This document shows positions 15,826-33,121 of a stretch of DNA of 64,000 nt, piece after piece (position 1 is the first letter of the stretch; every line of letters starts with the position of its first letter). Origin of the DNA: Burkholderiales bacterium (lineage in GTDB: Bacteria > Pseudomonadota > Gammaproteobacteria > Burkholderiales > JBBRTU01). The position numbers and the translations under genes are program-made. The notes beneath the pieces were generated by a model. The model was not told where the DNA came from, made no database searches, and saw nothing but the letters and a program-made list of their open reading frames with translations. Location: contig JBBRTU010000003.1 in the NCBI GenBank assembly GCA_038244115.1, forward strand, positions 71,647 to 135,646. Direction: 5' to 3'.

Positions 15826-15841
15826 TGGCATGGTCTTTGCA
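15826..15841 (+). promoter_or_regulatory. Sigma54 (-24/-12) promoter of the MFP-MFP-RND operon
   Basis: TGGCAT-GGTCT-TTGCA with exact GG-N10-GC spacing, 41 bp before the ATG. Confidence 0.8.
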
Positions 15842-15881: not shown

Positions 15882-16724
15882 ATGTTTCGACGCGCCATCT
15901 CATCGTTTATTTTTTGCACTGCCCTGGCGTTTAACGCGCAGGCGCAACCTGCCGCGCCTGCCGCAGACGATCACCATGATGATCACGATGACCATGCTGT
16001 GCCGCAACTCTATCCTGCCATTATCGTAATTGATCCGCGCCAAGTAGTGAGCGTGGTGGTCAAGATCAATGCGCGCCTGAAAAATCTGCGCAACCTTTAT
16101 GTCGGCCAGCGCGTTGCGCGCGACCAGGTGTTGGGAGAATTGGAGAGTGCTGAACTTGAAACCGTGCAGCGAACCTATCTCGGCCTCATTACCAACATGG
16201 ATGCGGTGCAGGCTTTTTCGATGACCTCTAACGAGAAGCTGATTGATGCGCGCATGAATCTGGCCTGGCGCGGCATGTCGGAAGCGGATATCAAGCAGCT
16301 GGATGCAACCAAAGAGCCGCTCAAGCTCATTGCTCTTAAAGCGCCGATCGCGGGTTATCTCTATAGCCTGAATGTCGTCAATGAGCAGATCGTCAACGCC
16401 GGCGGGCAAAGTGGTGTCTACACCACGACTGGTACTACCGTGGCTACCATCGCCAAGCCAGAGGCGGTGTATGTGGAGGCACAGATTCCGCTTACAGACG
16501 CGACGGGAATCAAGCCCGGTGCCGGCGCCGAGGTGTTGATGCCGACATCTGACGGCACGCGCATGACGGTCAAAGCAAAAGTAGAGCGCGTATTTTCCTT
16601 CGTTAACCCCGTGACCCAGCGCAAACGGGTACGTCTACTGTTGGCGCAACATCCAGAGCGACTGCCCTTGGCCGAGGGCTTGCCAGTCATGGTGCAGTTC
16701 AAAGGAAATGCACATGCGCCTTAA
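15882..16724 (+). CDS. Heavy-metal RND periplasmic adaptor (CusB/CzcB-like) 1, His/Asp-rich N-terminus
   Basis: Signal peptide; DDHHDDHDDH; lipoyl/hairpin motifs VGQRV..DQVLGELESAEL and LKAPIAG. Confidence 0.75.
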   Translation: MFRRAISSFIFCTALAFNAQAQPAAPAADDHHDDHDDHAVPQLYPAIIVIDPRQVVSVVVKINARLKNLRNLYVGQRVARDQVLGELESAELETVQRTYLGLITNMDAVQAFSMTSNEKLIDARMNLAWRGMSEADIKQLDATKEPLKLIALKAPIAGYLYSLNVVNEQIVNAGGQSGVYTTTGTTVATIAKPEAVYVEAQIPLTDATGIKPGAGAEVLMPTSDGTRMTVKAKVERVFSFVNPVTQRKRVRLLLAQHPERLPLAEGLPVMVQFKGNAHAP

Positions 16725-17868: not shown

Positions 17869-17992
17869 TTCCAATTCCAAATTAAAAGGAGAACAAGGCG
17901 GCGAGGATGAGGCGACGAAGACAGTACAACTAGTATGGCAAGGAGCCGAAGACGAAGCCAACGCGGTTATCGTTTTAATTTGGAATTGGATT
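17868..17992. mobile_element. 125-bp MITE/ERIC-like palindromic element, copy 1
   Basis: Perfect 18-bp inverted ends tccaattccaaattaaaa (17870-17887 / 17973-17990); near-identical copy at 34091-34215. Confidence 0.85.
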
Positions 17993-18008
17993 AAACGAGG
18001 TTGGCCGC

Positions 18009-21119: not shown

Positions 21120-21175
21120 CCAGACTGTGTGCCTAGAATTTAACCGTACGCGGCGCGTACACTGGAATCTCACTT

Positions 21176-23827
21176 ATGCTGGTTAAGACATCACGTTATG
21201 CGTTGCCGGCGCTTTCGTCTCTGACGAGGAGACCTCGTGTGCATCGCGATCCGCTGGAGATCGGTTTAGGCATCTGGGTGGCCGTGCTGGTGTTGTTTCC
21301 GGTACTGATGTTTCGCAGCATCAATCCAGAGATACTCAATACACTTTATATCGAGCCCAAGGCGCACTGGCTGGTCGAGATTTTTTGCGGCTTTGTCGCT
21401 GGCTTGATTGCTTGCCTGATCGGCGCGGTGGCTATTCGCCGGCGCGAACGTGCGCTGTGGCTATTCGCCGGCGCATTTATTGCTATGGCATCGCTGGACA
21501 TCCTCCATGCGTTCACCAACCCGGTGGACGCATCCGAGAGCTTCGTCGCCTTTCACACCGCTTCTACATTGGCAGGTGGAGCACTCATTACGCTGGGACT
21601 CATGCAGCAAATAAGACGCGTTTACCGGCTGACGGTAAACGACGTGAAATGGATTTTAGTTGGCCTGCTGTTCATGTTTGGAGTGGCGGTACTATATCGA
21701 TCCGTGCTGCCCGGTTATATCGTGCACGAGCCGTTGGAGGTTTATCGGTTCTCCGCCCAAGTGCACTTTTCCCATGGCCTGGCCGCGCTGCTTTATGCCA
21801 TCTCCGCGCTGCTGCTCTATAAAATTTACCGCGAAACCAGACATGTGTTGATGTTGGTGGTAGGGAGCTTTTTGCTGCTATTTGCGCAGAGCGCGCTCCT
21901 GTTTGGTTTTTCCAATATGTGGGATTTCCCCTGGTGGCTGTGGCATGGCGTCAAGGTTCTGTTCTATTTGGGGATGCTGGTCAGTCTGGCGGTGGGATTT
22001 CTCTTGGCGCTAGACGCCACGCAGCGCTCCCATGCCATGATTGTGCGTGCGAACATCCGAATTAAACGCTCCCAGCGCAAGATCCATAAAACCAATCGCG
22101 AACTACATACACGCAATCGCATGGTGCTGGAAGCGATTGGCGCGCTCGATGTTCCGCATGCATTGGAGGTCATCGGTCACGCGGTAAGCGAACAAATTGG
22201 GTTCAGTACCTATGAGTTGGTGCTGTTGGTTCCCGAGGACAGAGTGGCCGAATTAGCGCGCAGCCCGCGCTTCGCCGGATCCCGGCATCCAATCCGGGTG
22301 GAAGCTGAGAGCGCCACGCTCCCGGCGCACTGCCGATCCAAAGATCTGGTATGGACTTGTGTCGGCGTTGCGCGCGAGTCATCCTGGACTTGCCTTGATC
22401 TGGTGGCCCATGGCAATCGATTCGGCTATCTCAAGTTTTCGGGTGTCGCGCCAGAGGCGCTCGCGGCTTCGCATACTGAACTGAGCGCGCTGGCTTCGGA
22501 GGCAGGCCCGATTATCTATAACGCCTTGCTTTATCTCGATTGGCAGCAAGAAAACGCTTTCCGTGCCGCACTGTTACGCGTATCGACGATGTTGACTTCG
22601 ACGCTGGATCTGAGCGCCGTGCTATCGGCGGTCTGCCAGGAAAGCGCTGCACTGCTGGAGGCCGATGGTGCCGTGGTGTGGCTGCCGAATGACGCGGATG
22701 GCGCTTTCTCTATCGCGGCCCGTTGGTTCAATGTAAATCGCGATGGCTCATGTGAGCAGGCCCAGGCATGGTGCAAGGATGGCAAGTTGTGCGCCCAATT
22801 ACTCGCCGAGATCAATGGACAGTATCAGCCGCGGGCTTGGGCCATCGGGCCGGGTGGTGCAAGGGACGGGCTGGACGCGTATGGCCAAGATAAAGCGATT
22901 GCGCTGTTTCCATTGGTGGACGAAAACCAGCTCATCGGCGTAATGATGTTGGTGCGTAAAGCGTTAATACCTTTCAGCCAGATGACGCTCTCCAAAGGTG
23001 AGTTGCTCGCTGGCCAGGTGCGGATCGCGATCAGCAATGCAAGCAGTTACCGGAAAGTGGCTGAGATCAACCAGCAACTAGTGCTCGCGGAGGCCACCAA
23101 AATTCGCAGCGAGCGTCTTGCCGCGCTGGGGCAAATGGCGGCGTCGGTGGCGCACGAAGTCAGAAATCCCCTGAGCGCAATCGCCAACTGCGTGTCGGTG
23201 CTGAAAGCGGATTGCCCGCCCAATGGCAGGGCGCACACAGCGTTGGAGATTATCGAGGATGAAGTGTTTCGCCTGGATAAATTGACGCGTGATTTTCTTA
23301 CTTTTGGTAAGCCGCGTCCCGCCTCGCGTGACCCCGTGATCATGGAGGTTTTGTTGTACAAAGTCTGCGGTGCCTTGGAACATCACATCGAACGCGAAGG
23401 TATGTCCATCCAGGTCGACGTCGTGGTGCGCAATGGCGGAGGCGTGTTGATGTTCGATGCCGATGCGCTGGAAATGGTGCTGTGGAATTTGTTGCTGAAC
23501 GCGGCCCAGGCAATCCCGGGACGCGGTCGGATAAAAGCCAGTCTCACGATACGTCCGGGGTATTTGTTTTTTGCTATTACAGATACGGGCAAAGGCGTTT
23601 CGCTCGAAGAACGTAAGCGCATATTCGAGCCTTTCTACACTCAGCGTTCACATGGCGCGGGGTTGGGCTTGGCGATTGTGCAGCGCTTCGTCCAGGACTG
23701 GCGCGGCCGGATTCGCATTCTGAGCGTGCCAGGGCGCGGCACGACGTTCTTGTTGATGATTCCGATACCGAACCAACCAGTCGGTACGATGGAGCCCCAA
23801 TTTGGCTATGCGAATATTATTAGTTGA
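21176..23827 (+). CDS. Membrane sensor histidine kinase (multi-TM MASE-like input, GAF domains, HisKA/HATPase)
   Basis: ~8 TM helices incl. SLDILH; GAF-like STLDLSAVL; H-box AHEVRNPL; NLLLNAAQA; DTGKG; GAGLGL. Confidence 0.88.
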   Translation: MLVKTSRYALPALSSLTRRPRVHRDPLEIGLGIWVAVLVLFPVLMFRSINPEILNTLYIEPKAHWLVEIFCGFVAGLIACLIGAVAIRRRERALWLFAGAFIAMASLDILHAFTNPVDASESFVAFHTASTLAGGALITLGLMQQIRRVYRLTVNDVKWILVGLLFMFGVAVLYRSVLPGYIVHEPLEVYRFSAQVHFSHGLAALLYAISALLLYKIYRETRHVLMLVVGSFLLLFAQSALLFGFSNMWDFPWWLWHGVKVLFYLGMLVSLAVGFLLALDATQRSHAMIVRANIRIKRSQRKIHKTNRELHTRNRMVLEAIGALDVPHALEVIGHAVSEQIGFSTYELVLLVPEDRVAELARSPRFAGSRHPIRVEAESATLPAHCRSKDLVWTCVGVARESSWTCLDLVAHGNRFGYLKFSGVAPEALAASHTELSALASEAGPIIYNALLYLDWQQENAFRAALLRVSTMLTSTLDLSAVLSAVCQESAALLEADGAVVWLPNDADGAFSIAARWFNVNRDGSCEQAQAWCKDGKLCAQLLAEINGQYQPRAWAIGPGGARDGLDAYGQDKAIALFPLVDENQLIGVMMLVRKALIPFSQMTLSKGELLAGQVRIAISNASSYRKVAEINQQLVLAEATKIRSERLAALGQMAASVAHEVRNPLSAIANCVSVLKADCPPNGRAHTALEIIEDEVFRLDKLTRDFLTFGKPRPASRDPVIMEVLLYKVCGALEHHIEREGMSIQVDVVVRNGGGVLMFDADALEMVLWNLLLNAAQAIPGRGRIKASLTIRPGYLFFAITDTGKGVSLEERKRIFEPFYTQRSHGAGLGLAIVQRFVQDWRGRIRILSVPGRGTTFLLMIPIPNQPVGTMEPQFGYANIIS

Positions 23828-25184
23828 CGACCAGCGCAGCCTGCGCCGCAGCCTAGCGCTGATGCTGCAAAATGCGGGTTATGACACGGCTGACGCGGCC
23901 AGTGGCGAGGCGGCCTTGGCTTTGCTTGCGGGCGCGCCATTCGATTTGGTAATTAGCGATTTGCGCATGGAAGGCATGTCGGGGATCGATTTGCTGCGCG
24001 AAATTAAACAGATCCAACCCGGGCTTCCAGTCATCCTGATCACTGCCTACGGCAGCATTGAAACCGCAGTGGATGCGATGCGGCTGGGGGCGTTTGATTA
24101 TTTGGCCAAGCCTTTCAGTGAACGCGACATTCTCGACAAAATTCACGCCAGCCAAGTGATGCGGGTCATTTCTCCCGTCAGCGGTCAGACGCACTCCCGG
24201 CCGATCGAGGACGAAATCGTGGCGACAACGCCACCCATGCGCGCTTTACTGATTAAAATCGGACGGCTGGCCTATACCGATATCAGCGTACTGATTACCG
24301 GCGAAACCGGTACCGGCAAGACCAAAATCGCGCGCTTGATCCACGAACATAGTCATCGCAACGGCAAGCCTTTCGTTAGCATCAATTGCGCGAGCGTGCC
24401 GGAACAATTGTTGGAGAGCGAGTTATTCGGTCATATGCGCGGCAGTTTCACCGGCGCCACGGACTCGCGTGCCGGGCTGTTCGAAGAAGCGGACCAGGGC
24501 ACTATTTTCCTCGATGAAATCGACACGCTCTCTCCTGCGATGCAGGCAAAGTTACTCAGCGTTTTGCAAGACCGGCAAATCCGTCGCGTCGGATCGAACA
24601 AGCCGAAGACGATGGATGTGCGCGTGATTTCCGCCTCGAATCAAGACCTGGGCAATTTCATTGATCGCGGACATTTTCGTTCCGACCTGTACTTTCGCAT
24701 CAACGGCGTGCGCCTGCAATTACCCCCCTTGCGCGAGCGCTTGGAGGATTTGCGCCTGCTGTTGGAAGTCTTTATCAAACGCTACGGACGCAAGTATGGG
24801 CGCCACGGTCTGCACATTACGGCCCGCGCCATGACGCACGTCATGGCCTACCCCTATCCGGGCAATGTCCGCCAGCTTGAGAATTTTGTGGAGCAAATGG
24901 TGGTGTTCGCGGATGAAGCGGGCGCCATCGATCTCGATACGCTGCCAGAGGATTTGCTGCAGTACCGTCCGCAGGCGGTGGAGCATATGGCACCGCCTGA
25001 AGCGGTAGCCGTGGGTACGTTTGCCGGATCTGAGCGCGCCCTCATCGAGAATGCGCTGCGCAAATATCCCCACCTTTCAGATGCGGCACGAGAGTTGGGA
25101 ATCGGCCGTACGACGCTGTGGCGCAAGATACGCGAATACAATATTGCACGCCCTGCTGGCGGAGAGTTGAAACGCGGTATTTAA
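23808..25184 (+). CDS. Sigma54-dependent response regulator (AtoC/ZraR/NtrC type)
   Basis: Receiver LLVDD...SDLRM...KPF; GETGTGKT; GSFTGA; YPGNVRQL; HTH LGIGRTTLWRK. Confidence 0.92.
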   Translation: MRILLVDDQRSLRRSLALMLQNAGYDTADAASGEAALALLAGAPFDLVISDLRMEGMSGIDLLREIKQIQPGLPVILITAYGSIETAVDAMRLGAFDYLAKPFSERDILDKIHASQVMRVISPVSGQTHSRPIEDEIVATTPPMRALLIKIGRLAYTDISVLITGETGTGKTKIARLIHEHSHRNGKPFVSINCASVPEQLLESELFGHMRGSFTGATDSRAGLFEEADQGTIFLDEIDTLSPAMQAKLLSVLQDRQIRRVGSNKPKTMDVRVISASNQDLGNFIDRGHFRSDLYFRINGVRLQLPPLRERLEDLRLLLEVFIKRYGRKYGRHGLHITARAMTHVMAYPYPGNVRQLENFVEQMVVFADEAGAIDLDTLPEDLLQYRPQAVEHMAPPEAVAVGTFAGSERALIENALRKYPHLSDAARELGIGRTTLWRKIREYNIARPAGGELKRGI

Positions 25185-25210
25185 GCCCGCTTCTAATTTT
25201 TTCCATCTCC

Positions 25211-25226
25211 TGGCACGGACATTGCT
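25211..25226 (+). promoter_or_regulatory. Sigma54 promoter of DUF302 (-sodC)
   Basis: TGGCAC-GGACA-TTGCT with exact spacing. Confidence 0.78.
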
Positions 25227-25272
25227 GGCCTCCTCCTTAGTGGTACATTTTGTTTCAAGGGAGATTGTCCGG

Positions 25273-25806
25273 ATGAAGCATTTCTTAACAATATACTTTT
25301 CCAACTTACGCCGCCTGCTCATGCTGCTGGCGGTACTGGCTTGCGCGGGTGTTGTCACCGATGTAGCGGCGGGCGACAGCGCTGTGATGACCACCACCCG
25401 CATCAAGTACCAAGTGGAACTCAAAGACAATATCGAGTCGGTCAAGCAGTCCTTGGTCTCCGCCTTGGAGGCGAAAAATTACATGATCATCAACGTGCTG
25501 AACGTGCAAGAAGCCTTGCAGGGACGGGGTATCGAGACCAAGCCGGTGCAGCTCATTGAGTTTTGCAATCTGGTCAAAGCCTATGCGGTGACGCGCACGA
25601 CGCATGAGTTCGAACTGTTTGCACCGTGCCGACTGGCGTTGTTTGAGGAGAACGGGAAAACCATCGTGATGGTATTGCGCCCGTCATTTATTGCCATGAC
25701 GCTACCGAAAGAAACGCTGAGCAAGGAAGGACTGGCGGCGCTGCGCGCATTCGATCAAGACATGCGCGACATTTTGACTGCTGTCTCGCAGGGCGATTTT
25801 TTCTAG
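25273..25806 (+). CDS. Exported DUF302-domain protein
   Basis: IEFCN...LFAPCRLALFEENGKTIV...RPS pattern; hydrophobic N-terminus; start placed downstream of the sigma54 promoter. Confidence 0.75.
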   Translation: MKHFLTIYFSNLRRLLMLLAVLACAGVVTDVAAGDSAVMTTTRIKYQVELKDNIESVKQSLVSALEAKNYMIINVLNVQEALQGRGIETKPVQLIEFCNLVKAYAVTRTTHEFELFAPCRLALFEENGKTIVMVLRPSFIAMTLPKETLSKEGLAALRAFDQDMRDILTAVSQGDFF

Positions 25807-25925
25807 TTACCACGTTTCATTTTGAATCGGATATGAAACAAAGCTGGTCGATGCATGCTGATTTTTAGTGGCGCGGCTCTTAGTCTCCGCCCGTTGTGAC
25901 CTACATCAACCCCAAGGGAATCGCC

Positions 25926-26489
25926 ATGAAATTTTGTTTTGCGCCGCGCTCTGCTTGGCTACGCTTATCCCTCAGTCTTGCTACAGGTGCACTCCTGTTC
26001 GGCGGTGGCACCGCCTACGCGCATGAAGACATGACCACGGTCAGCGCCGAACTGGAGGCCAAATCGGGCAGCAAGGTAACGGGTATGCTGAAGTTCAAGG
26101 AATATGCGCCCAAAGTGCATATCACGGGCATCGTGAGCGGACTCACGCCCGGCAAGCATGGCATCCATGTGCATACCAATGGCAACTGCGACTCGCCAGA
26201 CGCGATGAGTGCAGGTGGCCACTATAGCCCATATGGCGGACGCCACAATGCGCCGACAAACCCGGACCGCCATCTCGGTGATCTCGGCAATATCGTTGCC
26301 GGCCCGGATGGAGTGGCGAATGTGGATCTGGTGGTAGAGGGCATGACGCTCGCGCTTATCGGTACCAACTCTATCATCGACCGCGCTATCGTGATTCATG
26401 CGAATGAAGACGACTTCTCCGATCCCACAGGCAACTCGGGGCCGCGAGTGGCCTGCGGCATCATCGATCAAGGCATGATGCGCATGTAA
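25926..26489 (+). CDS. sodC: Periplasmic Cu/Zn superoxide dismutase
   Basis: Metal ligands and active-site residues all present: HGIHVH, GNC, AGGHY, RH, RHLGDLGN, VIH, GNSGPRVACG. Confidence 0.93.
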   Translation: MKFCFAPRSAWLRLSLSLATGALLFGGGTAYAHEDMTTVSAELEAKSGSKVTGMLKFKEYAPKVHITGIVSGLTPGKHGIHVHTNGNCDSPDAMSAGGHYSPYGGRHNAPTNPDRHLGDLGNIVAGPDGVANVDLVVEGMTLALIGTNSIIDRAIVIHANEDDFSDPTGNSGPRVACGIIDQGMMRM

Positions 26490-26528
26490 GAAGCTGCCTT
26501 AAACCGTGCCCTGGCGAGCGGGGCCCGT

Positions 26529-26543
26529 GTTTCATGCTGAAAC
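26529..26543. promoter_or_regulatory. Putative enhancer GTTTCA-N3-TGAAAC
   Basis: Perfect palindrome ~73 bp upstream of the sigma54 promoter at 26616. Confidence 0.62.
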
Positions 26544-26615
26544 GATTTTCCTATCCGTTCATTGTGCGCGCACACGTCAGTTCCATAAGCGATTGTTTAC
26601 CATGTATTTAATAGT

Positions 26616-26631
26616 TGGCACGCCCTTTGCT
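26616..26631 (+). promoter_or_regulatory. Sigma54 promoter of the thioredoxin-like/TcDH operon
   Basis: TGGCAC-GCCCT-TTGCT consensus with exact spacing. Confidence 0.85.
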
Positions 26632-26753
26632 AAGGGTCACATGAGGGTGAATCAAAAGTGTGATTACAGAATATCCTGTTTCGCCGTCGGCTGGTCTGTT
26701 CGCTCGGGTCAAGTCAATTCGTAATTAGCAGCGTAATTTGAGGAGGAGACTTA

Positions 26754-27395
26754 ATGAATCGCGATATTCAGCTACAACGCCCAGCATGGCTGGGCATGCG
26801 GCGCAGCCAATTGGCCGCCGCTCTGGCCGCGCTAGGGTTGACCATAAGCTGCGCGCTACCCGCGCACGCCGATAGCAAGGACGGTACTTTCCCGACGGCG
26901 GAGCAAGTCGGCGGCGAAGTCTATCAGGCGCCACTCAAAATCGGTTCTATCCTGCCAACGGATTTCGAGGCCTATGACTCGCAGGCGAAGAAGGTCGACT
27001 TCGGCACGGTCATTCACGGCAAACGCTCCTTGGTGGTGTTCTTCATCTCCGCCGTGCCGGTTTCGGTGAATGAATTGAAGCGCATCGAGGAGTTCGTCGA
27101 CAAGAACGCGGCGAAGGTGAATTTGGTATTCGTCAATGCGGATACCGTCGGTGTCGCGCTGGAAGGCGGGCCGCAGAAGGCCATTAGCTCAACGGCCAGT
27201 ACCGTGCGGCTGATTGCGAAGGAGCATGGCTTGAAGCGCCCGATGTATGTCGCACCGAACGATGCCTTGAGCCCAACCGGCCTGTCCAATCGTCTTGCAT
27301 TCCGCGGTTTGCCGACGTCCTACTTAGTGAGTGATAAGGGTGCCATCGAGAAAATCTTTGTTGGCCCGCAGCAGTGGAAGAAGGGCGACATTTAA
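26754..27395 (+). CDS. Exported thioredoxin-fold (TlpA/redoxin-like) protein lacking the CxxC cysteines
   Basis: LVVFFISAVPVSVNELKRI aligns with the TlpA FWASWCPPC..E pattern; RGLPTSYLV...G.I....VGP cis-Pro region; signal peptide ending AHA; RBS gaggag. Confidence 0.75.
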   Translation: MNRDIQLQRPAWLGMRRSQLAAALAALGLTISCALPAHADSKDGTFPTAEQVGGEVYQAPLKIGSILPTDFEAYDSQAKKVDFGTVIHGKRSLVVFFISAVPVSVNELKRIEEFVDKNAAKVNLVFVNADTVGVALEGGPQKAISSTASTVRLIAKEHGLKRPMYVAPNDALSPTGLSNRLAFRGLPTSYLVSDKGAIEKIFVGPQQWKKGDI

Positions 27396-27453
27396 AGCAT
27401 TGTTCGACTCGTAACGAGTTGCGCGTTCAGTCATTATTAAGGAGGGACATCAG

Positions 27454-28920
27454 GTGCCTATATCTCGACGTGATTTTATGAAAAGGTCGCTTGCCGCCGG
27501 TATCGCCGGCGCTGGCGTAATGTTGAATTCCAGCTCAAGTTTCGCTGCACGCCATGATCCGGTTGGTGAAGCGCAGGCCGATTTTTTTAAGAAATTTGAA
27601 GGCAATGTCTTGTTGTTGCCCGGCAAATATAACGGTACGGTGTCGGCCTTGGATCTCGCTGTTCCGGAAACGCTCGCCTGGTTCAACTATGGTTTGACGG
27701 GTGTCAATATGCCGATTCCGCATCACATCGCCGCCATGCCCTCGGCCGACCCGTATAAGGGGTTCGACTTTTATCAGACGATGCAGCCGCCGATGTCGCC
27801 CTACGTCAACGAAAACTCTCCGGAGTGGCGCGATCGCGGCGACTTCAAAATGTTCAAGATGCGCTTCGACGGCTCGGGCAAGCAAAACTCGATTACGGTG
27901 GTGAACGACGTTGCCGCGACCACGGGCATGGCGCTTGGCGTGCATGTCTCGATCGGTGTGGGCGAGAATGCGAACAAATACGTTGCCTTCGCTGATGGGC
28001 AGAAAGACATGGTGCTGATTACGACGATTGATGACAACCCGAAGATCGTCAAGGCGCTGCGCGTGGACTATGACCCGATCGCACGCCAAGTCAATGTCAG
28101 CCATGTGTTCCCCGATCCCGCCACCGGCAAGTTCGATTTCCAGGGACGCAAGGGGATGAAAACCTCGCATGAAGCAATGCTGGGCGAAGAACTCATGCCG
28201 GCTGATCCGACCGCGGTATTCGTGGACGCGTTCACCTGGCATCCCACGCTGCCGCTAGGTGCGATCCTGATACGTCGTCTAGGTTGCTGTGCGATTATCG
28301 ATACCCGTACCTGGGAAGTTAAAGCACTGCTCTCGACCGCGAAAGGTTCGCCAGACAACTTCCCGCTGGTTAAGCAGCAAGGCTTCACTTGGACGTTTGC
28401 CGTACCATCGGTGCTTACCCCCTTGCATGAAGCAGGCTTCTTGCCGAGCGGGGAATATTTTGTCGCATGTAACAATGTGCTGCAAAACAACATCGCCGTT
28501 TACCGGGCAACCGATCCTAATCCGCTCAAGTGGAAAAAAGAAGCGTTCGTCGAAGGCTTTGGCAACAAATACTTGCCGCTGCACATGGGCAATGTGCCGG
28601 ATTCGCGTTGGGCCTACTTCACCATGTGGGCGCGCAAGCCGAACAATGGCTATATCGCCAAGGTGGACACCAAGTCCTGGCAGGTGGTCCACAAGTGGGA
28701 CACGGGACCCGATCCCCATACCTGCGATTGCACGGTGGATGGTAAATATATGACCACCGTATATAGCGGGAATCAGGGCGGGCAGTCGGGCTTGGTGGTG
28801 CTCAATGTTGATACCGACAAAATCGAAGCGCGTCTCCCCAGCGCCGCCGGCCATCACGATCATGTAGTGGTGCCGAAGGACTGGGAAGGCATGAAGGCCT
28901 CGCGCAGCACCTCTGTGTAA
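27454..28920 (+). CDS. tcdh: Thiocyanate dehydrogenase (TcDH) homolog, Tat-exported multicopper beta-propeller
   Basis: Tat signal SRRDFMK; motifs PGKYNGTV, PIPHHIAAMPSADPYK, LGVHVSI, ADGQKD, PLHEAGF, PLHM, GPDPHT, GHHDHVVVP and C-terminal SRST match Thioalkalivibrio TcDH as I recall it. Confidence 0.85.
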   Translation: MPISRRDFMKRSLAAGIAGAGVMLNSSSSFAARHDPVGEAQADFFKKFEGNVLLLPGKYNGTVSALDLAVPETLAWFNYGLTGVNMPIPHHIAAMPSADPYKGFDFYQTMQPPMSPYVNENSPEWRDRGDFKMFKMRFDGSGKQNSITVVNDVAATTGMALGVHVSIGVGENANKYVAFADGQKDMVLITTIDDNPKIVKALRVDYDPIARQVNVSHVFPDPATGKFDFQGRKGMKTSHEAMLGEELMPADPTAVFVDAFTWHPTLPLGAILIRRLGCCAIIDTRTWEVKALLSTAKGSPDNFPLVKQQGFTWTFAVPSVLTPLHEAGFLPSGEYFVACNNVLQNNIAVYRATDPNPLKWKKEAFVEGFGNKYLPLHMGNVPDSRWAYFTMWARKPNNGYIAKVDTKSWQVVHKWDTGPDPHTCDCTVDGKYMTTVYSGNQGGQSGLVVLNVDTDKIEARLPSAAGHHDHVVVPKDWEGMKASRSTSV

Positions 28921-28929
28921 TCTCCCCCT

Positions 28930-28968
28930 GCGTGCCGCAGTCCACCAGGGCGGTGGCACGCTTTTTTT
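28930..28968 (+). terminator. Rho-independent terminator/attenuator after tcdh
   Basis: gcgtgcc...ggcacgc stem followed by T7. Confidence 0.7.
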
Positions 28969-28978
28969 GGAGTGAGAA

Positions 28979-29422
28979 ATGCGAGCAATAAAATTCGATT
29001 TCACGCGCAGCTTGCAGCGACTGATGTTAGCCACCGGTTTTGTTTTGGCAAGCCTGCCGTCGGCCGTGTTGGCGCATAGCAATGAATACCTGGAAACCAT
29101 CACCGGTGCGCATGGCGGCAAGCTGCGCATGGCCGAGCAATACCATTTCGAAATGGTATTGGCGAATGGCGAATTACGCGTGTGGGTAACCGATCACGGC
29201 GACAATCCGCAATCGACCGTGGGTGCGACAGGGAATGTGAAATTAGTGATGGAAGCCGGCAATATCACGGTGAATCTTATCCCAAGCGGCGCGAACCTCC
29301 TGGTGGGCAAGGATCCGAAGATTCGCGCGAATGCTCCGGTTAAGGCAATTTTCTCCGTGACAATGAAAGGGCAGAAACCAGTTCAAACGCGCTTTGCGTT
29401 TGAAGCCACCACTAAGAAATAA
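28979..29422 (+). CDS. Conserved exported protein, possible copper chaperone
   Basis: Signal peptide ending AVLA|HSN; GAHGGKLRMAEQYHFEMV...VWVTDH His/Met motif of a kind seen next to metal-efflux genes. Confidence 0.55.
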   Translation: MRAIKFDFTRSLQRLMLATGFVLASLPSAVLAHSNEYLETITGAHGGKLRMAEQYHFEMVLANGELRVWVTDHGDNPQSTVGATGNVKLVMEAGNITVNLIPSGANLLVGKDPKIRANAPVKAIFSVTMKGQKPVQTRFAFEATTKK

Positions 29423-29447
29423 ATGGATCGCTACTGCTGGAGGAGAG

Positions 29448-30068
29448 ATGAAGACACGTCACCTCCTGTTTATCGCTGTGTTCGGGATACCGGTAGGCAC
29501 TGGCTGGGCGCAGGACCTTGCCGTGAAAAACGCAGCCACGCAATTGCTGCGCACCAATGCATGTAAGAACTGCAATCTGACCGAAGCGAATTTGGCTGGC
29601 ATTAATCTCATCGGCGCGAACCTGACCGGCGCTGATTTGAGCGGCGCCAACTTGGCTAGCACAGTGTTGATTGGGGCGGATATGCGCAACGCTATTCTGA
29701 ATGGCGCCAATTTATCGCGCGCCAATATCAGTGGCGCCAATCTGACCGGCAGCCAACTTGCCAAGATTATTTTAGACGATGCAGTGGCGAGCCGTGCCAA
29801 TTTGTATAAAGTCACCGCGACAGGCGCCAGTTTCCGGCGCACGAAATTGGAGTATGTGAATTTTGAAGGTGCAGAGTTAAAAGGAGCGAACTTCGAAGGT
29901 GGGGATTTTTACGAAGCACACTTTCTTTTTGCCGAGCTCACCAACGCGAACTTTGAAGGCGCAGATTTGAGTGCCGCCGATTTTTCCGATGCGAATATGC
30001 TGGGTGTACGAACCGACTCCAAGACGACCTGCCCGACTTTTCAAGCAGGGCCATGCAAATTCAAATAA
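29448..30068 (+). CDS. Exported pentapeptide-repeat protein
   Basis: Long A(N/D)LxG repeats; N-cap CKNCNL; signal peptide; RBS ggagg. Confidence 0.9.
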   Translation: MKTRHLLFIAVFGIPVGTGWAQDLAVKNAATQLLRTNACKNCNLTEANLAGINLIGANLTGADLSGANLASTVLIGADMRNAILNGANLSRANISGANLTGSQLAKIILDDAVASRANLYKVTATGASFRRTKLEYVNFEGAELKGANFEGGDFYEAHFLFAELTNANFEGADLSAADFSDANMLGVRTDSKTTCPTFQAGPCKFK

Positions 30069-30134
30069 CCATGTTGCGATCGACAGCCGCCGTGCTTTGT
30101 CGCGAAATAATTAAATATTAAAAATGAATTTGAA

Positions 30135-30734
30135 ATGAACCGGGATTATTTATTGTTTTACCGCTGGATCGCACTGAATGTGGTTGGATTTTCCATTCTG
30201 CTCGTATTCCACTTACATGGCATGATGGTGCCAGTTTATATTGCCGATACTTCATACATTGTTTATGTCATCACCGGACTTTTTTTGTACGGTTTAACGT
30301 TATGCGGCTATCGCGTATGGAAGACCAGCCGCGAACTGAATTGGGTCAAACTGGGCGGCCGGGGCAAGCTCAAAGAATTTCAGGATCTCAGCAAGCGGGC
30401 GGATAAGGAGAGTGTGAAGGAGGCATTTGAGATTAAATTGTTCGCGCGCATTGCGCACATTAAATATGTTTCTTCCAGTCTCGTCATGCTCGGGTTGTTG
30501 GGTACGGTGATTGGCTTCATCATGGTGCTTACTAACATACCTAGCAACGCAATCGGCGACACAGCGCAGGTGGGTAAGTTGGTCGGCGCGCTGACGAACG
30601 GCATGGGCGTCGCGCTCTACACTACGCTCGTGGGCGCGATTACCAATCTCTGGCTTAACGCCAACTACAACATGCTGCGCACAGGCGTGGTCAATCTGAT
30701 TGCCGCTATTCTCGAATCGCCGGATACAGATTAG
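30135..30734 (+). CDS. MotA/TolQ/ExbB proton-channel family protein
   Basis: LVMLGLLGTVIGF and GMGVALYTTLVGA helices. Confidence 0.88.
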   Translation: MNRDYLLFYRWIALNVVGFSILLVFHLHGMMVPVYIADTSYIVYVITGLFLYGLTLCGYRVWKTSRELNWVKLGGRGKLKEFQDLSKRADKESVKEAFEIKLFARIAHIKYVSSSLVMLGLLGTVIGFIMVLTNIPSNAIGDTAQVGKLVGALTNGMGVALYTTLVGAITNLWLNANYNMLRTGVVNLIAAILESPDTD

Positions 30735-30743
30735 AACCAAGCA

Positions 30744-31397
30744 ATGAGCAAGCACTTTTCTTTCGATGCGGAGGAACAGGACGACTCCGACGTTGTATTT
30801 CGGGATGTGATCACGCTGGCTTTGCTCGGGTTTGTATCGCTCGTGATTATCATGCTGCCGCACATCAACCCGGCGAAACCGAAACAAGAAGATAGCAAGG
30901 CGGCACAAGCGCCGGGAAATGTCATCGTGGAAGTGCGTTGGGACGATAAGATCGACGCTGATGTGGATCTCTGGGTGCAGGCGCCAGGCGATGTGCCAGT
31001 GGGTTACTCCAATCTGGGCGGTCAGGTATTCAATTTGTTGCGGGACGATATCGGCTTCCGCAACGATGCCTCGAATCTTAACTATGAGAATGCATTTTCG
31101 CGCAGCATTCCGGCGGGAGAATACGCCGTTAATCTGCACATGTATTTCAATCGCGCGAATTTGTGGCCTGTGAAAGCGAAAGTGCTGGTCTCCACCATTA
31201 AACCTAGCGGCATTTCCCGTGTCAGCCAGCAGATACTTGTTTCGGACGTGGCTCTTAAAAGGCAGGGCGAAGAAATTACTGTGTTCCGCTTTAAACTGGA
31301 TGATCACGGAGACTTGGTGCCGGGCAGCGTAAATGCCAATCCGAAAAAGCTGCGTACCGACGCACCGGGCGGCTACCACTTTGGTACCTACAAATGA
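30744..31397 (+). CDS. Single-TM partner of the MotA/TolQ protein (ExbD/MotB-like TM Asp, atypical periplasmic domain)
   Basis: VFRDVITLALLGF TM with Asp at the ExbD/MotB position; periplasmic DVDLWV..PG...LLRDD.G...NYE...PAGEY.VNLH (YfaP/DUF2135-like). Confidence 0.6.
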   Translation: MSKHFSFDAEEQDDSDVVFRDVITLALLGFVSLVIIMLPHINPAKPKQEDSKAAQAPGNVIVEVRWDDKIDADVDLWVQAPGDVPVGYSNLGGQVFNLLRDDIGFRNDASNLNYENAFSRSIPAGEYAVNLHMYFNRANLWPVKAKVLVSTIKPSGISRVSQQILVSDVALKRQGEEITVFRFKLDDHGDLVPGSVNANPKKLRTDAPGGYHFGTYK

Positions 31398-31933
31398 GCC
31401 ACTTGCTAGCACTGTTGGTCGGCTATCTGCTTATTTCGCTGGGGTACGCGTTGTTTTCGCTGAGAACGACGAGAAGCCTCTTGTTTCGGACTGTGGCGCT
31501 TGGCTATTTGTTGGTTTCCATCGGGTGGGTTTTATATTTTTACAACCAACTGTTGTCACTTCCCAAGCCTATCGACCAGGAATTCTTCAACAATGCTAAA
31601 GAAGCGGTAGTGCTGGCGGTTCGTCCGAAAAGCGATAGTGCGGTATATCTTTGGCTACAATTGCCGGATAGAGATTACCCGTCTTATTACGTCATGCCCT
31701 GGAATGGGCGAGCTGCCGAGGAGTTGGAGATAGCACAGCGCGAGGCGGCACAGCAAGAAGGGCTGGTAATCATGAAGCATCCCTTCCATCGCAATCCGCA
31801 GCAAGGAATACGCGGCGTCGACAAGGATCCAGTGTTCTACGCTGCACCGCCGCCGCGGCCACCGGAAAAAATGGGCGAGCTGCATCCTGACTCGCCCATC
31901 GTCTCGAACAATCTGTCTAGAGTGACTCCATGA
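31394..31933 (+). CDS. Hypothetical membrane-anchored protein, third gene of the MotA/TolQ module
   Basis: ATGA overlap with the previous gene; two TM helices; VYLWL...PSYYVMPW; Pro-rich tail APPPRPPEK. Confidence 0.65.
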   Translation: MSHLLALLVGYLLISLGYALFSLRTTRSLLFRTVALGYLLVSIGWVLYFYNQLLSLPKPIDQEFFNNAKEAVVLAVRPKSDSAVYLWLQLPDRDYPSYYVMPWNGRAAEELEIAQREAAQQEGLVIMKHPFHRNPQQGIRGVDKDPVFYAAPPPRPPEKMGELHPDSPIVSNNLSRVTP

Positions 31934-32152
31934 AATGCAGGCAGGCGGATAAGTGGCGTATTTACCCCATCCAGGCCGAAAGAGAAAGCAAGAGGAGCGA
32001 GAGCACGGCAGGAAACGCGCAGCGGGGTGGACAATCGCCCATTTCTCCGCAAACCGCATAATCCGCGTCGCCTGGCCGTGCTGCGATCGATCCACAACCC
32101 CCGTGTTTTGTCGCGGAATAGTACAAAAATTTTATCCTTTTGGGGAACCTAT

Positions 32153-33121
32153 ATGAGCCAATCCCACTACTGCCTGTCCCTATTGCCCCTCCTTGCAGCC
32201 ATGGGGACCGTCATAAGTGATGCTCATGCCTCCTGCGGCCAAGCATTCTGTGTCGTAAACACCAATTGGGCAATGCAGGGCGTACCGTCCGACCCAGAAA
32301 GCAGTCGTCTTGATCTGCATTATGAGTACATCAACCAGAACAAACTACGGCAGGGAAACCGGAAAATTTCGGCTGCTGATGACACGGCTGACACGCGGGA
32401 AAACCGTACACTCAACCACAATATCGTCGCCACTTATGACTACACGGCATCTAATGCCTGGGGGGTTTCGATTGCTGTGCCGCTGCAGCAGCGCATTCAC
32501 GACCATATTACTGACCCAACGGGCACTGCCAGTTACGAAAAGTGGGACTTCACCAAGATGGGCGACATCAAACTGATGGCAAGCTACAACATCACAAATG
32601 ACGAAGATCCTCTCAATAATTTCGGATTGCAGTTCGGACTAAAGCTCCCGTCTGGCAGCCACACAGTTGCCAACGGTGACGGCACCCGAGCGGAACGCGC
32701 ATTGCAGCCGGGTTCAGGCAGTACCGACGTGATCATAGGAACCTTCTATACACATCCCGGCTTCGGAGTCGGTTCGACCTGGTTCGCGCAAGGCACACAC
32801 CAGCAGGCTGTGATGACGCGTGATGACTTCCGCCCCGGCGGTGTCACCTCTCTCACCGCAGGCTATACACAGCCCTTAGCCGGCGCACTCGCCGGCACCC
32901 TCCAACTCAACGCCCTGTTCAAAGCCCGCGATGTTGGCGCTCAGGCAGAGCCGGATCTGTCCGGCGGAAAATACGTTTTCATCAGCCCCGGCCTCCGTTA
33001 CGCGGCATCCAAGTCCGTGCAGATATATGCTTACGCGCAATTGCCGATTTACCGTTTCGTCAATGGTATTCAGCTTACTGCCGACCTCGCTTTTGTCGGC
33101 GGCGTCACAATACGCTTCTAG
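32153..33121 (+). CDS. Outer-membrane beta-barrel transporter (SphA/MetA-pathway-like) with N-terminal Cys motif
   Basis: Signal ending AHA|SCGQAFC; MGDIKL; GLKLPSG; ERALQPGSGSTD; terminal Phe. Confidence 0.7.
   Translation: MSQSHYCLSLLPLLAAMGTVISDAHASCGQAFCVVNTNWAMQGVPSDPESSRLDLHYEYINQNKLRQGNRKISAADDTADTRENRTLNHNIVATYDYTASNAWGVSIAVPLQQRIHDHITDPTGTASYEKWDFTKMGDIKLMASYNITNDEDPLNNFGLQFGLKLPSGSHTVANGDGTRAERALQPGSGSTDVIIGTFYTHPGFGVGSTWFAQGTHQQAVMTRDDFRPGGVTSLTAGYTQPLAGALAGTLQLNALFKARDVGAQAEPDLSGGKYVFISPGLRYAASKSVQIYAYAQLPIYRFVNGIQLTADLAFVGGVTIRF

Follow-up and report, generated by a model that had tools for sequence, protein, structure and literature searches.

The open reading frame at 27454-28920 of the 64,000-nucleotide stretch of DNA analyzed here (the window) encodes a homologue of thiocyanate dehydrogenase (TcDH) that is a further member of an already reported, neutrophile type of this enzyme. 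In the reading we prefer, to which we assign a probability of about 0.8, it is a functional periplasmic TcDH that belongs to a sigma-54 regulon, with roles for a neighboring metal pump, for the small secreted proteins encoded by genes J and L, and for the Sox pathway of the organism. This reading builds on observed homology, conserved residues, the order of the genes, promoter motifs and folds from prediction; activity, copper routing and a complex between J and TcDH are what we infer from it.

The TcDH gene, its product and its clade

The gene starts with GTG, and a strong ribosome-binding site (AGGAGG) lies 8 nt upstream. The Tat signal that a preliminary description had read in the product is present: the motif is SRRDFMK, and the TIGR01409 model reaches 20.6 bits (cut-off 16.7), with the Pfam TAT_signal model at 15, under its cut-off of 22.7. 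Apart from this signal, no Pfam or NCBIfam family matched the protein, and its relatives are named 'hypothetical protein' in the source records, in keeping with the remark that such enzymes often go unannotated. Weak matches to L-NosZ and to PQQ propellers, far under their cut-offs, were rejected. The family is also rare, as had been stated, with 119 representatives at E ≤ 1e-3 and 11 at E ≤ 1e-30 among 1.84 billion cluster representatives.

A search of 177,635 PDB sequences returned 8q9x as the best match (E = 2.6e-80, query residues 43-487); we take this entry, together with 8you and 8z75, to be the Pelomicrobium enzyme, which carries the PDB title 'Twin-arginine translocation signal domain-containing protein'. 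The Thioalkalivibrio paradoxus enzyme (5f75) aligned over its full length (E = 1.3e-72, query residues 42-487), and the first match outside the TcDHs came only at E = 0.49. Judged by sequence, the match to the solved enzymes is far beyond chance, and the fold would be a beta-propeller like that of these homologues.

All of the Lys, His, Glu and Asp motifs listed in the preliminary description are found in the protein, namely K58 (PGK), H90 and H91 (PHHI), H164 (GVH), E240 (HEA) and D258 (VDA), followed in the C-terminal half by H325 (PLHE), H377 (PLHM), H422 (DPH), and H467, H468 and D469 (GHHD). The published active-site set, in 5f75 numbering, comprises Lys103, His135, His136, Gln156, His206, Glu288, Asp314, His381, His437, His482, His528, Asp529 and Arg544 (PMC6504805, Fig. 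4 legend). When the window TcDH was aligned to 5f75 with phmmer, all 13 of these residues were in register (K58, H90, H91, Q111, H164, E240, D258, H325, H377, H422, H468, D469 and R484), with ligands neither missing nor misregistered; across 27 clade members they are invariant, R484 being at least 90% conserved. The 13 residues and the Tat signal are thus common to the window protein and T. paradoxus TcDH (5f75, 6i3q, 5oex, 6uwe, 6sji), which is described as a homodimer of seven-bladed propellers with three copper ions that converts SCN- to cyanate and sulfur (PMC9456337).

Differences from the Thioalkalivibrio enzyme had been noted in several loops, and the alignment bears them out. Residues 111-125 (QPPMSPYVNENSPEW) align to the solved enzymes without gaps yet are dissimilar, and the shorter segment downstream of the Glu corresponds to an 8-residue deletion after residue 251 relative to 5f75. 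Within the clade, the loop that follows Gln111 and the segment that follows Glu240 do not vary, and both are unlike those of the characterized enzymes.

That clade was delimited in a tree of 84 rows, the window TcDH and 83 loci, from which Guyparkeria is absent. One locus, L046, with a best HSP of <400 aa, was left out of the tree, and L047 (partial) and L050-L084 (repeats of the L002-L047 contigs, with less flanking sequence) were not used. The window TcDH falls within a 40-row clade (SH-aLRT 99) whose rows include Thiohalobacter thiocyanaticus, Paracoccus thiocyanatus, Thiobacillus thioparus, and Afipia and Thiobacillus from SCN- bioreactors. This neutrophile clade is set apart from the Thioalkalivibrio clade by branches of 1.09 and 0.41, longer than any other internal branch in the tree. 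Identity to the window TcDH ranges from 76 to 96% within the clade, whose hosts are Thiobacillus, Thiohalobacter, Guyparkeria, P. thiocyanatus, Afipia and others, and is 78% for the Guyparkeria SCN-R1 protein and 79% for that of Thiohalobacter HRh1. The earlier label 'divergent' therefore holds against the solved clade (33-38% identity) and fails within its own widespread clade, of which the protein is a typical member. A homologue from a Pelomicrobium MAG belongs to the other deep clade and is 38% identical, and a 'novel thiocyanate dehydrogenase' from Afipia has been reported to be 33.7% identical to 5f75 (bioRxiv 10.1101/2020.04.29.067207). Judged from the nearest TcDH relatives and from the presence of SoxB in the genome (888.5 bits against a cut-off of 550), the window host is probably a betaproteobacterial sulfur oxidizer.

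The gene cluster and its promoters

The TcDH gene lies within a co-directional cluster on the forward strand that extends from 15882 to 33121, about 17.2 kb, close to the ~17 kb first estimated (Table 1). The accompanying term 'copper island' survives in part. A link to copper or metal is arguable for the pump, its two adaptors, SodC, TcDH and the CrdA-like product of gene L; the other genes have no demonstrated link to copper, the pump is as near to ZneA as to CusA, and genes N-Q are mostly missing elsewhere. As for 'island', the rise in GC is small (0.54-0.58 in the cluster against 0.50-0.53 upstream) and the open reading frames scanned included no integrase or transposase, on which grounds a mobile island was rejected.

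Table 1 Features of the TcDH gene cluster in the window.
Feature	Coordinates	Strand	Basis
Sigma-54-type element TGGCAT-N5-TTGCA, 1 mismatch, 41 nt before cusB1-like	15826..15841	+	motif scan
RND adaptor 1, CusB1-like, 280 aa, mature N-terminus His/Asp-rich	15882..16724	+	PF16576 HlyD_D23 1.2e-26
RND adaptor 2, CusB2-like, 386 aa	16708..17868	+	PF16576 4.6e-25
Heavy-metal-efflux RND pump, CusA/CzcA family, 1036 aa	18009..21119	+	TIGR00914 774.3 bits vs cut-off 701.45
Membrane sensor histidine kinase, 883 aa	21176..23827	+	polytopic N-terminus, GAF, HisKA, HATPase
NtrC-type sigma-54-dependent response regulator, 460 aa	23802..25184	+	Response_reg, Sigma54_activat, HTH_8
Exact sigma-54 -24/-12 promoter TGGCAC-N5-TTGCT before DUF302-SodC	25211..25226	+	motif scan
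DUF302 protein	25222..25806	+	PF03625 5.8e-12
Periplasmic Cu,Zn superoxide dismutase SodC	25896..26489	+	PF00080 5.7e-42
Exact sigma-54 -24/-12 promoter TGGCAC-N5-TTGCT, 122 nt before gene J	26616..26631	+	motif scan
Gene J, secreted Cys-less TlpA/ResA-like thioredoxin-fold protein, 213 aa	26754..27395	+	Redoxin 3.4e-5
TcDH, neutrophile clade, Tat-exported, 488 aa	27454..28920	+	full-length homology, active-site residues, tree
Terminator-like hairpin then T-run, just after TcDH stop codon	28942..28956	+	hairpin scan
Gene L, secreted 147-aa beta-sandwich, N-terminal His after signal peptide	28979..29422	+	alignment, model
Gene M, secreted pentapeptide-repeat protein, invariant CxxC, C-terminal Cys pair	29394..30068	+	PF00805 3.4e-46
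Genes N-O-P, MotA/ExbB-like membrane protein and two membrane proteins	30135..31933	+	PF01618 1.1e-10 (N)
Gene Q, 364-aa secreted protein, final residue Phe	32027..33121	+	sequence

Against the PDB, the pump matched ZneA (1.5e-140) and CusA (4.6e-139) alike, which bears on whether it handles copper or zinc. Matches of the first adaptor to the CusB and CzcB models of NCBIfam were weak and under cut-off, as were those of the second to TIGR01730 and CusB, and no outer-membrane factor of the CusC/TolC type was matched among the cluster open reading frames scanned. The listed DUF302 frame overlaps the promoter before it, and its start is probably the ATG at 25273. Toward the 3' end, genes O and P had no match in Pfam or NCBIfam, and neither had gene Q, which possibly encodes an outer-membrane barrel. 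Genes N-Q (30135-33121) are missing from most related loci: N and O (80-85% identical) and P (64-72%) recur in 9 of 46, the others being without them, and weak homologues of Q (34-41%) occur in 3 of the 46. The cluster encodes no c-type cytochrome motif (CxxCH).

The two exact sigma-54 promoters inside the cluster are a new observation. They are the only exact matches in the 64 kb, both are intergenic, 0.18 would be expected, and two or more arose in 0 of 100 shuffles; of 40 related loci, 27 have a similar element ahead of gene J. The element at 15826 is weak on its own, given 64 matches at up to 2 mismatches against 51.9 by chance. Terminator-like sites (14 found, 11.2 expected) and the sigma-70 promoter scan did not rise above chance, and the inverted or direct repeats sought as binding sites for the regulator amounted to one pair, before cusB1.

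An order of cusB1-, cusB2- and cusA-like genes, histidine kinase, sigma-54 regulator, thioredoxin-like gene and TcDH was described in 2019 for Thiohalobacter and Guyparkeria (PMC6504805). The operons of Thiohalobacter thiocyanaticus HRh1/FOKN1 and Guyparkeria SCN-R1 have the same order as the window, including a GAF-containing membrane kinase of ~880 aa, and the Thiohalobacter locus also carries L and M. The window differs from both in that DUF302 and SodC, with a sigma-54 promoter of their own, are inserted between the regulator and J, and in the addition of N-Q downstream; cyanase was not found in the window genome, whereas both of those genomes are reported to have one. The DUF302-SodC insertion is likewise seen in Thiobacillus loci. 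Afipia from SCN- bioreactors has an 82% identical TcDH, the same J-TcDH-L-M core and cus genes, and its genome is reported to encode cyanase (bioRxiv 10.1101/2020.04.29.067207), which the window genome apparently lacks. As had been proposed, the neighborhood is unlike that of Thioalkalivibrio, in which the gene is described as flanked by copC and copD (PMC6504805) instead of by a Cus-type pump, and in which the electron acceptor is given as cytochrome c552 (PMC9456337), a protein that the window cluster does not encode.

Genes J, L and M

In 43 of 46 clade loci, J is the gene immediately ahead of TcDH; the remaining three are cut <320 nt before TcDH, which makes 43 of 43 with upstream sequence. 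None of 39 loci from the other TcDH clade has J. Its Pfam matches, to Redoxin and AhpC-TSA, are under their cut-offs. The model of the protein (pLDDT 81) is closest to ResA (Z 15.5, rmsd 2.3, 129 aa aligned), followed by a DsbE-like protein (Z 15.3) and TlpA (Z 13.4). It thus shares both fold and secretion with the TlpA/ResA/CcmG thiol-disulfide oxidoreductases and is missing their catalytic CxxC, in place of which it has SAVPVS; the mature part has no Cys in 28 of 28 homologues. A persulfide-carrier role has been proposed for the thioredoxin-like protein upstream of TcDH (PMC6504805). Since no homologue has a Cys in its mature part, gene J cannot encode a thiol oxidoreductase, and such a carrier is unlikely as well.

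Gene J is predicted to bind TcDH. Three runs of complex prediction gave ipSAE values of 0.14, 0.71 and 0.72 (median 0.71), and the best of three controls gave 0.00; the ipSAE mark applied is one that 58 of 80 solved complexes attain, as do 2 of 110 mismatched pairs, a calibration that is rough for home-made alignments. The runs share at least 38% of contacts, with a partner pLDDT of at least 78. Nine of the 18 invariant J residues fall within the 41-residue predicted interface (174 residues in all; hypergeometric p = 0.009), and the predicted contacts of J fall on the clade-specific loops of TcDH, the ones that the preliminary description had picked out.

Downstream of TcDH, gene L is a candidate periplasmic copper chaperone, as judged from its modeled fold and its conserved residues. 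All 29 aligned sequences keep the candidate ligands H33, which is the first mature residue, H56, E58 and D72, and conservation of H73 is 90% or more. In some homologues the C-terminal tail is rich in His. The model (pLDDT 89) superimposed best on CrdA (Z 11.2, rmsd 2.4, 94 of 108 residues aligned), and the top fold matches (VIA, 48,161 chains) continued with DUF4426 (10.2), HftA (9.4), FtrA-P19 (9.1) and Tp34 (8.9), all of them examples of a common beta-sandwich. This sandwich is shared with Helicobacter pylori CrdA, CopC/PcoC (Z 6.5-7.3 for CopC) and P19/FtrA, to which identity is only 6-14% over the structural matches. CopC is known to have an N-terminal His ligand. No sequence family matched gene L at E ≤ 0.01 in Pfam or E ≤ 0.001 in NCBIfam, those at E ≤ 5 being at chance level, and the best Foldseek match in the PDB, at E = 1.2e-3, missed the limit of 0.001. 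Atlas leads to CzcB_N and YtkA at 0.82 were under the evidence level and were dropped; unnamed clusters reached 0.94.

Gene M probably starts at 29448, and its C39, C42, C195 and C203 are kept in 21 of 21 aligned sequences. The main text of PMC6504805 does not mention L or M, and none of the matches listed in our literature search ties TcDH to a pentapeptide-repeat protein or to CrdA; beside the main-text description of the published operon, the two conserved downstream genes are new. No homologue of J, L or M was found within 6 kb of TcDH in the Pelomicrobium MAG locus.

Proposed function, alternatives and significance

Thiohalobacter and Guyparkeria are reported to oxidize SCN- via cyanate, and Thiohalobacter overproduces TcDH on SCN- (PMC6504805, PMC6934394), to 2.455% of the proteome in FOKN1 (PMC6934394). 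The window organism would, by this kinship in sequence, oxidize thiocyanate as well. In the mechanism that we propose, the TcDH product would be exported by the Tat pathway and act in the periplasm as a trinuclear-copper enzyme. The membrane histidine kinase and the NtrC-type regulator encoded nearby would run a sigma-54 regulon, with promoters ahead of three units: the pump with its two adaptors, the DUF302-SodC pair, and a core of four genes, J-TcDH-L-M. The HME-RND pump would bring metal, probably Cu(I), to the periplasm, from which gene L may pass copper to apo-TcDH; gene J would dock, as a subunit or an assembly factor, onto TcDH through the loops that surround its active-site side; and the sulfur product may enter the Sox pathway of the organism. 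Cyanate is probably not hydrolyzed by the cell, because no cyanase was found by two models in a genome rated 100% complete, a search of uncertain sensitivity in that only Synechococcus matched among the controls. With no CxxCH cytochrome in the cluster and no cyanase found, the proposed mechanism accounts for neither the electron acceptor nor the fate of cyanate, which counts against it.

The TcDH purified from FOKN1, a member of the same clade, did not oxidize SCN-, nor did cell-free extracts (PMC6934394), and the literature searched reports no in vitro activity for any neutrophile-clade TcDH. The real substrate of this TcDH-fold, trinuclear-copper enzyme might thus be a small sulfur or C-S compound other than SCN-, oxidation of which would be at best a side activity, and the clade-invariant loops after Gln111 and Glu240, the occurrence of the clade in genomes without known SCN- oxidation (a Nitrospira defluvii MAG and Rhodoplanes serenus, for example) and the cyanase not found in the window genome would all fit. 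We regard it as unlikely, in view of the 13 active-site residues kept, the overproduction of the Thiohalobacter protein on SCN- with accumulation of cyanate (PMC6504805, PMC6934394), and the enrichment of the clade in SCN- bioreactor genomes and named SCN- oxidizers. SCN--oxidizing Thioalkalivibrio are likewise described as being without cyanase (PMC6504805), and failure in vitro is equally explicable by lost copper or a lost partner. The Nos-type alternative, another copper beta-propeller resembling nitrous-oxide reductase, draws on an NCBIfam match to lactonase-type NosZ (E = 4.3e-4, 18.9 bits, residues 375-436); this covers only ~60 residues far under the 700-bit cut-off, the strong PDB matches are all TcDHs with the next at E = 0.49, and the alternative is effectively refuted.

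Acquisition of the gene by transfer is likely, because the tree mixes classes and phyla and no homologue turned up in any of the 40 genomes searched from the same order. The gene could then be a passenger, unexpressed or unmatured in its host and conferring no thiocyanate metabolism, and neither a cyanase nor a dedicated cytochrome was found. Against this stand an intact frame with its strong ribosome-binding site, a regulator pair, pump, promoters and accessory genes that are all intact and co-directional, and 96% identity to the copy of a relative, which suggests purifying selection; we consider a silent passenger very improbable. A functional neutrophile TcDH remains our preferred reading. 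Some observations count against it: the inactivity of the FOKN1 preparations on SCN-, the identity of 33-38% to the characterized clade with differing loops beside the active site, the metal of the pump given that ZneA and CusA match alike, the one J-TcDH run of three at 0.14, and a gene L that has no sequence family.

We tentatively extend this reading, at less than even odds, to a TcDH that works in a complex with J, which would cap the active-site side via loops 114-123 and 235-254, and that is matured by L and M, such that J-TcDH-L-M under sigma-54 control would be the true transferred functional unit of SCN- oxidation at neutral pH. If this is true, loss of the J, L and M partners would account for the inactivity of the purified Thiohalobacter enzyme.

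Thiocyanate is a major pollutant that gold mining and coke ovens release. Treatment bioreactors are dominated by Thiobacillus and Afipia strains, and it is the neutrophile type of TcDH that is reported from these. One more carrier of TcDH would by itself be routine annotation. The small genes that neighbor TcDH in this conserved operon have hardly been studied, and the useful part is the anatomy of the conserved core, with a predicted complex of J and TcDH formed on the very loops that set the clade apart, a candidate copper chaperone, a CxxC repeat protein and sigma-54 promoters. This anatomy offers a recipe by which an active neutrophile enzyme might be reconstituted, namely the co-expression of J, L and M with TcDH, and the J-TcDH-L-M module may be a better genomic marker for thiocyanate oxidation in metagenomes.

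The dehydrogenase, its active site and its host

The thiocyanate dehydrogenase (TcDH) gene of the window opens with a GTG codon, has the ribosome-binding site AGGAGG 8 nt 5' of this start, and encodes 488 residues. Its product carries SRRDFMK at the N-terminus and scores 20.6 bits against the Tat-signal model TIGR01409 (cut-off 16.7); the protein body is matched by no family model in Pfam or NCBIfam, in agreement with the preliminary remark that such genes often go unannotated. When the protein was searched against the PDB, the significant matches comprised nine distinct sequences, all from TcDH structures and led by 8q9x (E 2.6e-80) and the Thioalkalivibrio paradoxus enzyme 5f75 (E 1.3e-72), with residues 42/43-487 aligned, and the next match had an E-value of 0.49. 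Tsallagov et al. 2019 (PMC6504805, legend to Fig. 4) name 13 active-site residues for the T. paradoxus enzyme, and all of them are retained in the 5f75 alignment at verified positions (5f75/window: K103/K58, H135/H90, H136/H91, Q156/Q111, H206/H164, E288/E240, D314/D258, H381/H325, H437/H377, H482/H422, H528/H468, D529/D469 and R544/R484). Residues 111-125 align without gaps to the solved enzymes and are dissimilar in sequence, and eight residues are deleted after position 251 (5f75 alignment). The preliminary description of a TcDH with a Tat signal and the expected ligand set, differing in loops from the Thioalkalivibrio enzyme, was thus confirmed in each of these respects. We consider the TcDH identity well supported and assign a probability of roughly 0.8 to the ORF encoding a functional, SCN--oxidizing enzyme.

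The host genome (3.49 Mb in 121 contigs, rated 100% complete) encodes SoxB (888.5 bits), and the host is therefore probably a sulfur oxidizer. A search of this genome for cyanase (PF02560, TIGR00673) found none. SCN--oxidizing Thioalkalivibrio are likewise reported without cyanase (PMC6504805), and we regard its absence as no argument against TcDH function. The nitrile-hydratase-type subunit of thiocyanate hydrolase was also not found in the host genome, in a search whose control gave no signal, and the TcDH cluster has no gene for a CxxCH protein.

Distribution of the family and its conserved gene core

A word-indexed search returned 235 proteins at E<=0.001 among 8000 candidates scored. These fell into three identity bands: a tight one at 73-96%, including a Sulfuriferula MAG (89%), Sulfuricella (85%) and Guyparkeria sp. 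SCN-R1 (78%); a small middle one at 59-64%; and a large distant one at 31-39%, some members of which carry the JGI name 'thiocyanate desulfurase'. Exhaustive searching of 1.84 billion cluster representatives gave 119 matches at an E-value cut-off of 1e-3, of which 11 reach 1e-30 or lower, mostly fragments; the family is rare. Scanning 185,579 species genomes with the single protein yielded 46 loci, and a profile scan of the same genomes yielded 250, the best 80 of which were retained. Named carriers in the tight band include Thiobacillus thioparus DSM 505 (85% identity), T. denitrificans DSM 12475 (84%), Thermithiobacillus tepidarius (80%), Thiohalobacter thiocyanaticus HRh1 (79%), Paracoccus thiocyanatus (77%), and Afipia and Thiobacillus bins from SCN- pilot reactors (82-84%).

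In a maximum-likelihood tree of 84 rows (quick search, LG+G4; locus L046 left out), separating branches of 1.09 and 0.41 divided the sequences into two deep clades. The Pelomicrobium-type sequence falls in one of them, of 39 rows; the second comprises 45, and within it the window belongs to a 40-row subclade (SH-aLRT 99), next to three sequences from betaproteobacterial MAGs, of which the closest shares 96% identity. Sequences from different classes and phyla intermix in the tree, and a search of 40 genomes of the same order gave no homologue; on both grounds, horizontal spread of the gene is likely. The TcDH of L017, a contig titled as a Rhizobium sp. MAG, is nearly identical to that of T. 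thioparus DSM 505 (L015; branches 0.0024 and 0) and lies in the same gene order, so that L017 has the appearance of a Thiobacillus contig placed in the wrong bin, and its TcDH would then not be a Rhizobium gene.

We compared gene order by tblastn of the window's proteins against the 46 related loci. The gene for J, a Cys-less thioredoxin-like protein, immediately precedes TcDH in 43; the other three (L002, L013 and L020) each start less than 320 nt before TcDH. Gene L follows TcDH in 38 of the 46, being absent from the Nitrospira locus, from four uncut loci of the ~61% subclade, and from L017, L039 and L047, which end at a contig end. The pentapeptide-repeat gene M follows L in 35. Searching 6 kb to each side at 39 loci from the second deep clade recovered neither J nor L, and M gave one weak opposite-strand match. 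This contrast marks J-TcDH(-L-M) as the clade-specific core. The remaining genes are more restricted: DUF302 and SodC recur chiefly in betaproteobacterial loci, and N and O (80-85% identity) with P (64-72%) occur in nine Thiobacillus-type loci and are absent from the remaining related loci, the closest relative included. Between these Thiobacillus-type loci, N and O are better conserved than J, L or M.

Two variant arrangements were observed. The locus of a Nitrospira defluvii MAG (L031), a nitrite-oxidizer bin, has J and a 77% identical TcDH, with no L, M or Cus-type pump nearby at comparable identity; it represents either a pared-down module or an error in binning. In T. denitrificans DSM 12475 (L021:2755-9308) and similar Thiobacillus loci, an insert of ~6.5 kb between SodC and J encodes a BNR-repeat protein, a TonB-dependent receptor, ExbB, ExbD and one unassigned protein, and in DSM 12475 a SoxA/TsdA-type cytochrome c gene lies downstream of the pentapeptide gene. 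The insert may be a copper-uptake module, and the cytochrome may be the electron acceptor for TcDH.

Cluster organization and predicted sigma-54 promoters

Features of the TcDH cluster and other loci in the window
Feature	Position	Strand	Remarks
ORF, 1224 aa	8-3682		64-65% GC stretch
Sigma-54-type element	15826-15841	+	one mismatch; 41 nt before first adaptor gene
Two HlyD-type adaptors	from 15882 (first, 15882-16724)	+	cluster start
RND pump	after adaptors	+	passes CusA/CzcA subfamily cut-off (774.3 vs 701.45)
Membrane histidine kinase	after pump	+	883 aa, with GAF
NtrC-type sigma-54 activator	after kinase	+	
Predicted sigma-54 promoter	25211-25226	+	exact; precedes DUF302-SodC
DUF302, then Cu,Zn-SOD (SodC)	between activator and J	+	
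Palindrome	26563-26574		42 nt upstream of J's -24 element
Predicted sigma-54 promoter	26616-26631	+	exact; 122 nt before J
J	26754-27395	+	thioredoxin-like
TcDH	27454-28920	+	
L	28979-29422	+	147 aa; no family
M	29394-30068	+	pentapeptide-repeat
N, O, P	30135-31933	+	N MotA/ExbB-like; O, P no assigned family
Q	32027-33121	+	no assigned family; cluster end
FKBP gene	33241		downstream of cluster
DUF559 endonuclease-like gene	33729-34091		directly after FKBP gene; PF04480 E 3.9e-46

All genes from 15882 to 33121 share one strand; upstream are an unrelated Na+/H+ exchanger and a ThiF-family gene. The Thiohalobacter and Guyparkeria operons of Tsallagov et al. show the same arrangement from the adaptors to TcDH, and that paper (PMC6504805) contrasts this Cus-type arrangement with the copC/copD flanks of Thioalkalivibrio. 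The earlier proposal of a maturation system unlike that of Thioalkalivibrio is therefore correct and was already published. Its description of the region as a copper island is justified in part only: the pump matches the zinc pump ZneA (E 1.5e-140) and CusA (E 4.6e-139) equally well, and copper therefore stays an assumption as the pump's substrate.

The pattern TGGCAC-N5-TTGCW has exactly two matches in the 64-kb window (0.18 expected; two or more in 0 of 100 shuffles), both intergenic, on the + strand and inside the TcDH cluster. Of 40 related loci, 6 have TGGCAY-N5-TTGC ahead of J and 21 more the relaxed form TGGYAY-N6-TGC (at -95 to -175), leaving 13 with neither. Together with the adjoining sigma-54 activator, the promoter matches support a predicted three-promoter sigma-54 regulon.

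Several further features were noted. The perfect 12-nt palindrome TGTGCGCGCACA could be a binding site of the NtrC-type regulator. The first adaptor has an acidic, His-rich stretch, DDHHDDHDDH, immediately after its signal peptide, which could be a metal-binding N-terminal arm. N-O-P-Q encode the MotA/ExbB-like protein, two family-less membrane proteins and a secreted protein of 364 residues (Q) with a CGQAFC motif and a C-terminal Phe. At the window's start, the 1224-aa ORF is internally repeated, with a 16-mer recurring in its region at 227, 263 and 332 on the minus strand; it probably encodes a large protein of repetitive sequence that is secreted or exposed at the surface.

Accessory proteins and a predicted J-TcDH complex

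The model of J (pLDDT 81) has a fold of the TlpA/ResA/CcmG type, matching ResA with a Z-score of 15.5 (rmsd 2.3 over 129 aa) and TlpA with 13.4. None of 28 homologues has a Cys outside the signal peptide, and SAVPVS occupies the CxxC position; J is therefore excluded as a thiol oxidoreductase. The persulfide-carrier role proposed for the thioredoxin-like protein in PMC6504805 is likewise hard to reconcile with these Cys-less sequences.

In 29 sequences of L, the signal peptide always ends immediately before the invariant H33; G46, G47, H56, E58, W69, D72 and P102 are also invariant, H73 is nearly so, and several homologues have His-rich C-terminal tails. The model of L is a β-sandwich (pLDDT 89) for which Foldseek gave no match at E<=0.001. 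An all-against-representatives structure search placed H. pylori CrdA at the top (Z 11.2, rmsd 2.4, 94 aa), followed by DUF4426 (10.2) and the copper/iron proteins HftA (9.4), FtrA-P19 (9.1) and Tp34 (8.9); CopC scored 6.5-7.3. L is thus a candidate periplasmic copper chaperone by likeness of fold and not by membership of a family. For M, 21 sequences show a pentapeptide-repeat protein with a signal for secretion; a CxxC close to its N-terminus and a Cys pair at its C-terminus (TTCP...GPC) are both invariant.

We then modeled mature TcDH (33-488) with mature J (40-213), using alignments of 27 rows each. Three runs scored 0.14, 0.71 and 0.72 (median 0.71), and the best of three controls 0.00. 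Among solved complexes 58 of 80 reached this mark, against 2 of 110 for mismatched pairs, a calibration only approximate for self-made alignments. At least 38% of contacts agreed between runs, and partner pLDDT was at least 78. The predicted TcDH interface (114-115, 119-123, 208-211, 235-239, 244-254, 275-277, 319-323, 341-345, 371-374 and 393-397) takes in both clade-specific features noted in the preliminary description, as well as positions 1-4 residues along the chain from Q111, E240, D258, H325 and H377. On J it comprises 41 of 174 residues; these contain 9 of the 18 invariant positions (hypergeometric p 0.009) and the loop at 98-104 that corresponds to the lost CxxC. Predicted contacts include TcDH 247-254 and, on J, R184 and N169. 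Interface-loop residues of TcDH are invariant in 27 clade members, the ~61% subclade included, and every one of their loci has a J homologue. Judging from the titles of the PDB matches, we are aware of no experimental structure of TcDH with a thioredoxin that might have been memorized by the model. The prediction supports docking of J on TcDH; a pass of this test is support for binding, not demonstration.

Published evidence on this clade includes a TcDH-sized protein overproduced in SCN--grown Thiohalobacter (Tsallagov et al., PMC6504805), an orthologue making up 2.455% of the proteome of the Thiohalobacter strain FOKN1, with cyanate accumulation and with a purified TcDH that, like cell-free extracts, failed to oxidize SCN- (Oshiki et al., PMC6934394), and an Afipia homologue predicted by modelling as a 'novel thiocyanate dehydrogenase' (Huddy et al., bioRxiv 10.1101/2020.04.29.067207). 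The literature searched, whose coverage leaves out many journals, yielded no later biochemical work on TcDH of the neutrophile clade, the group with Thiohalobacter and Thiobacillus. The enzyme type and the Cus-type operon arrangement were already known from Tsallagov et al. (PMC6504805); added here are the J-TcDH-L-M core with the sigma-54 promoters predicted for it, two accessory proteins (one CrdA-like, one with CxxC and pentapeptide repeats) and the predicted complex of J with TcDH. This complex could explain, in a way open to experiment, why the neutrophile enzyme was inactive once purified.
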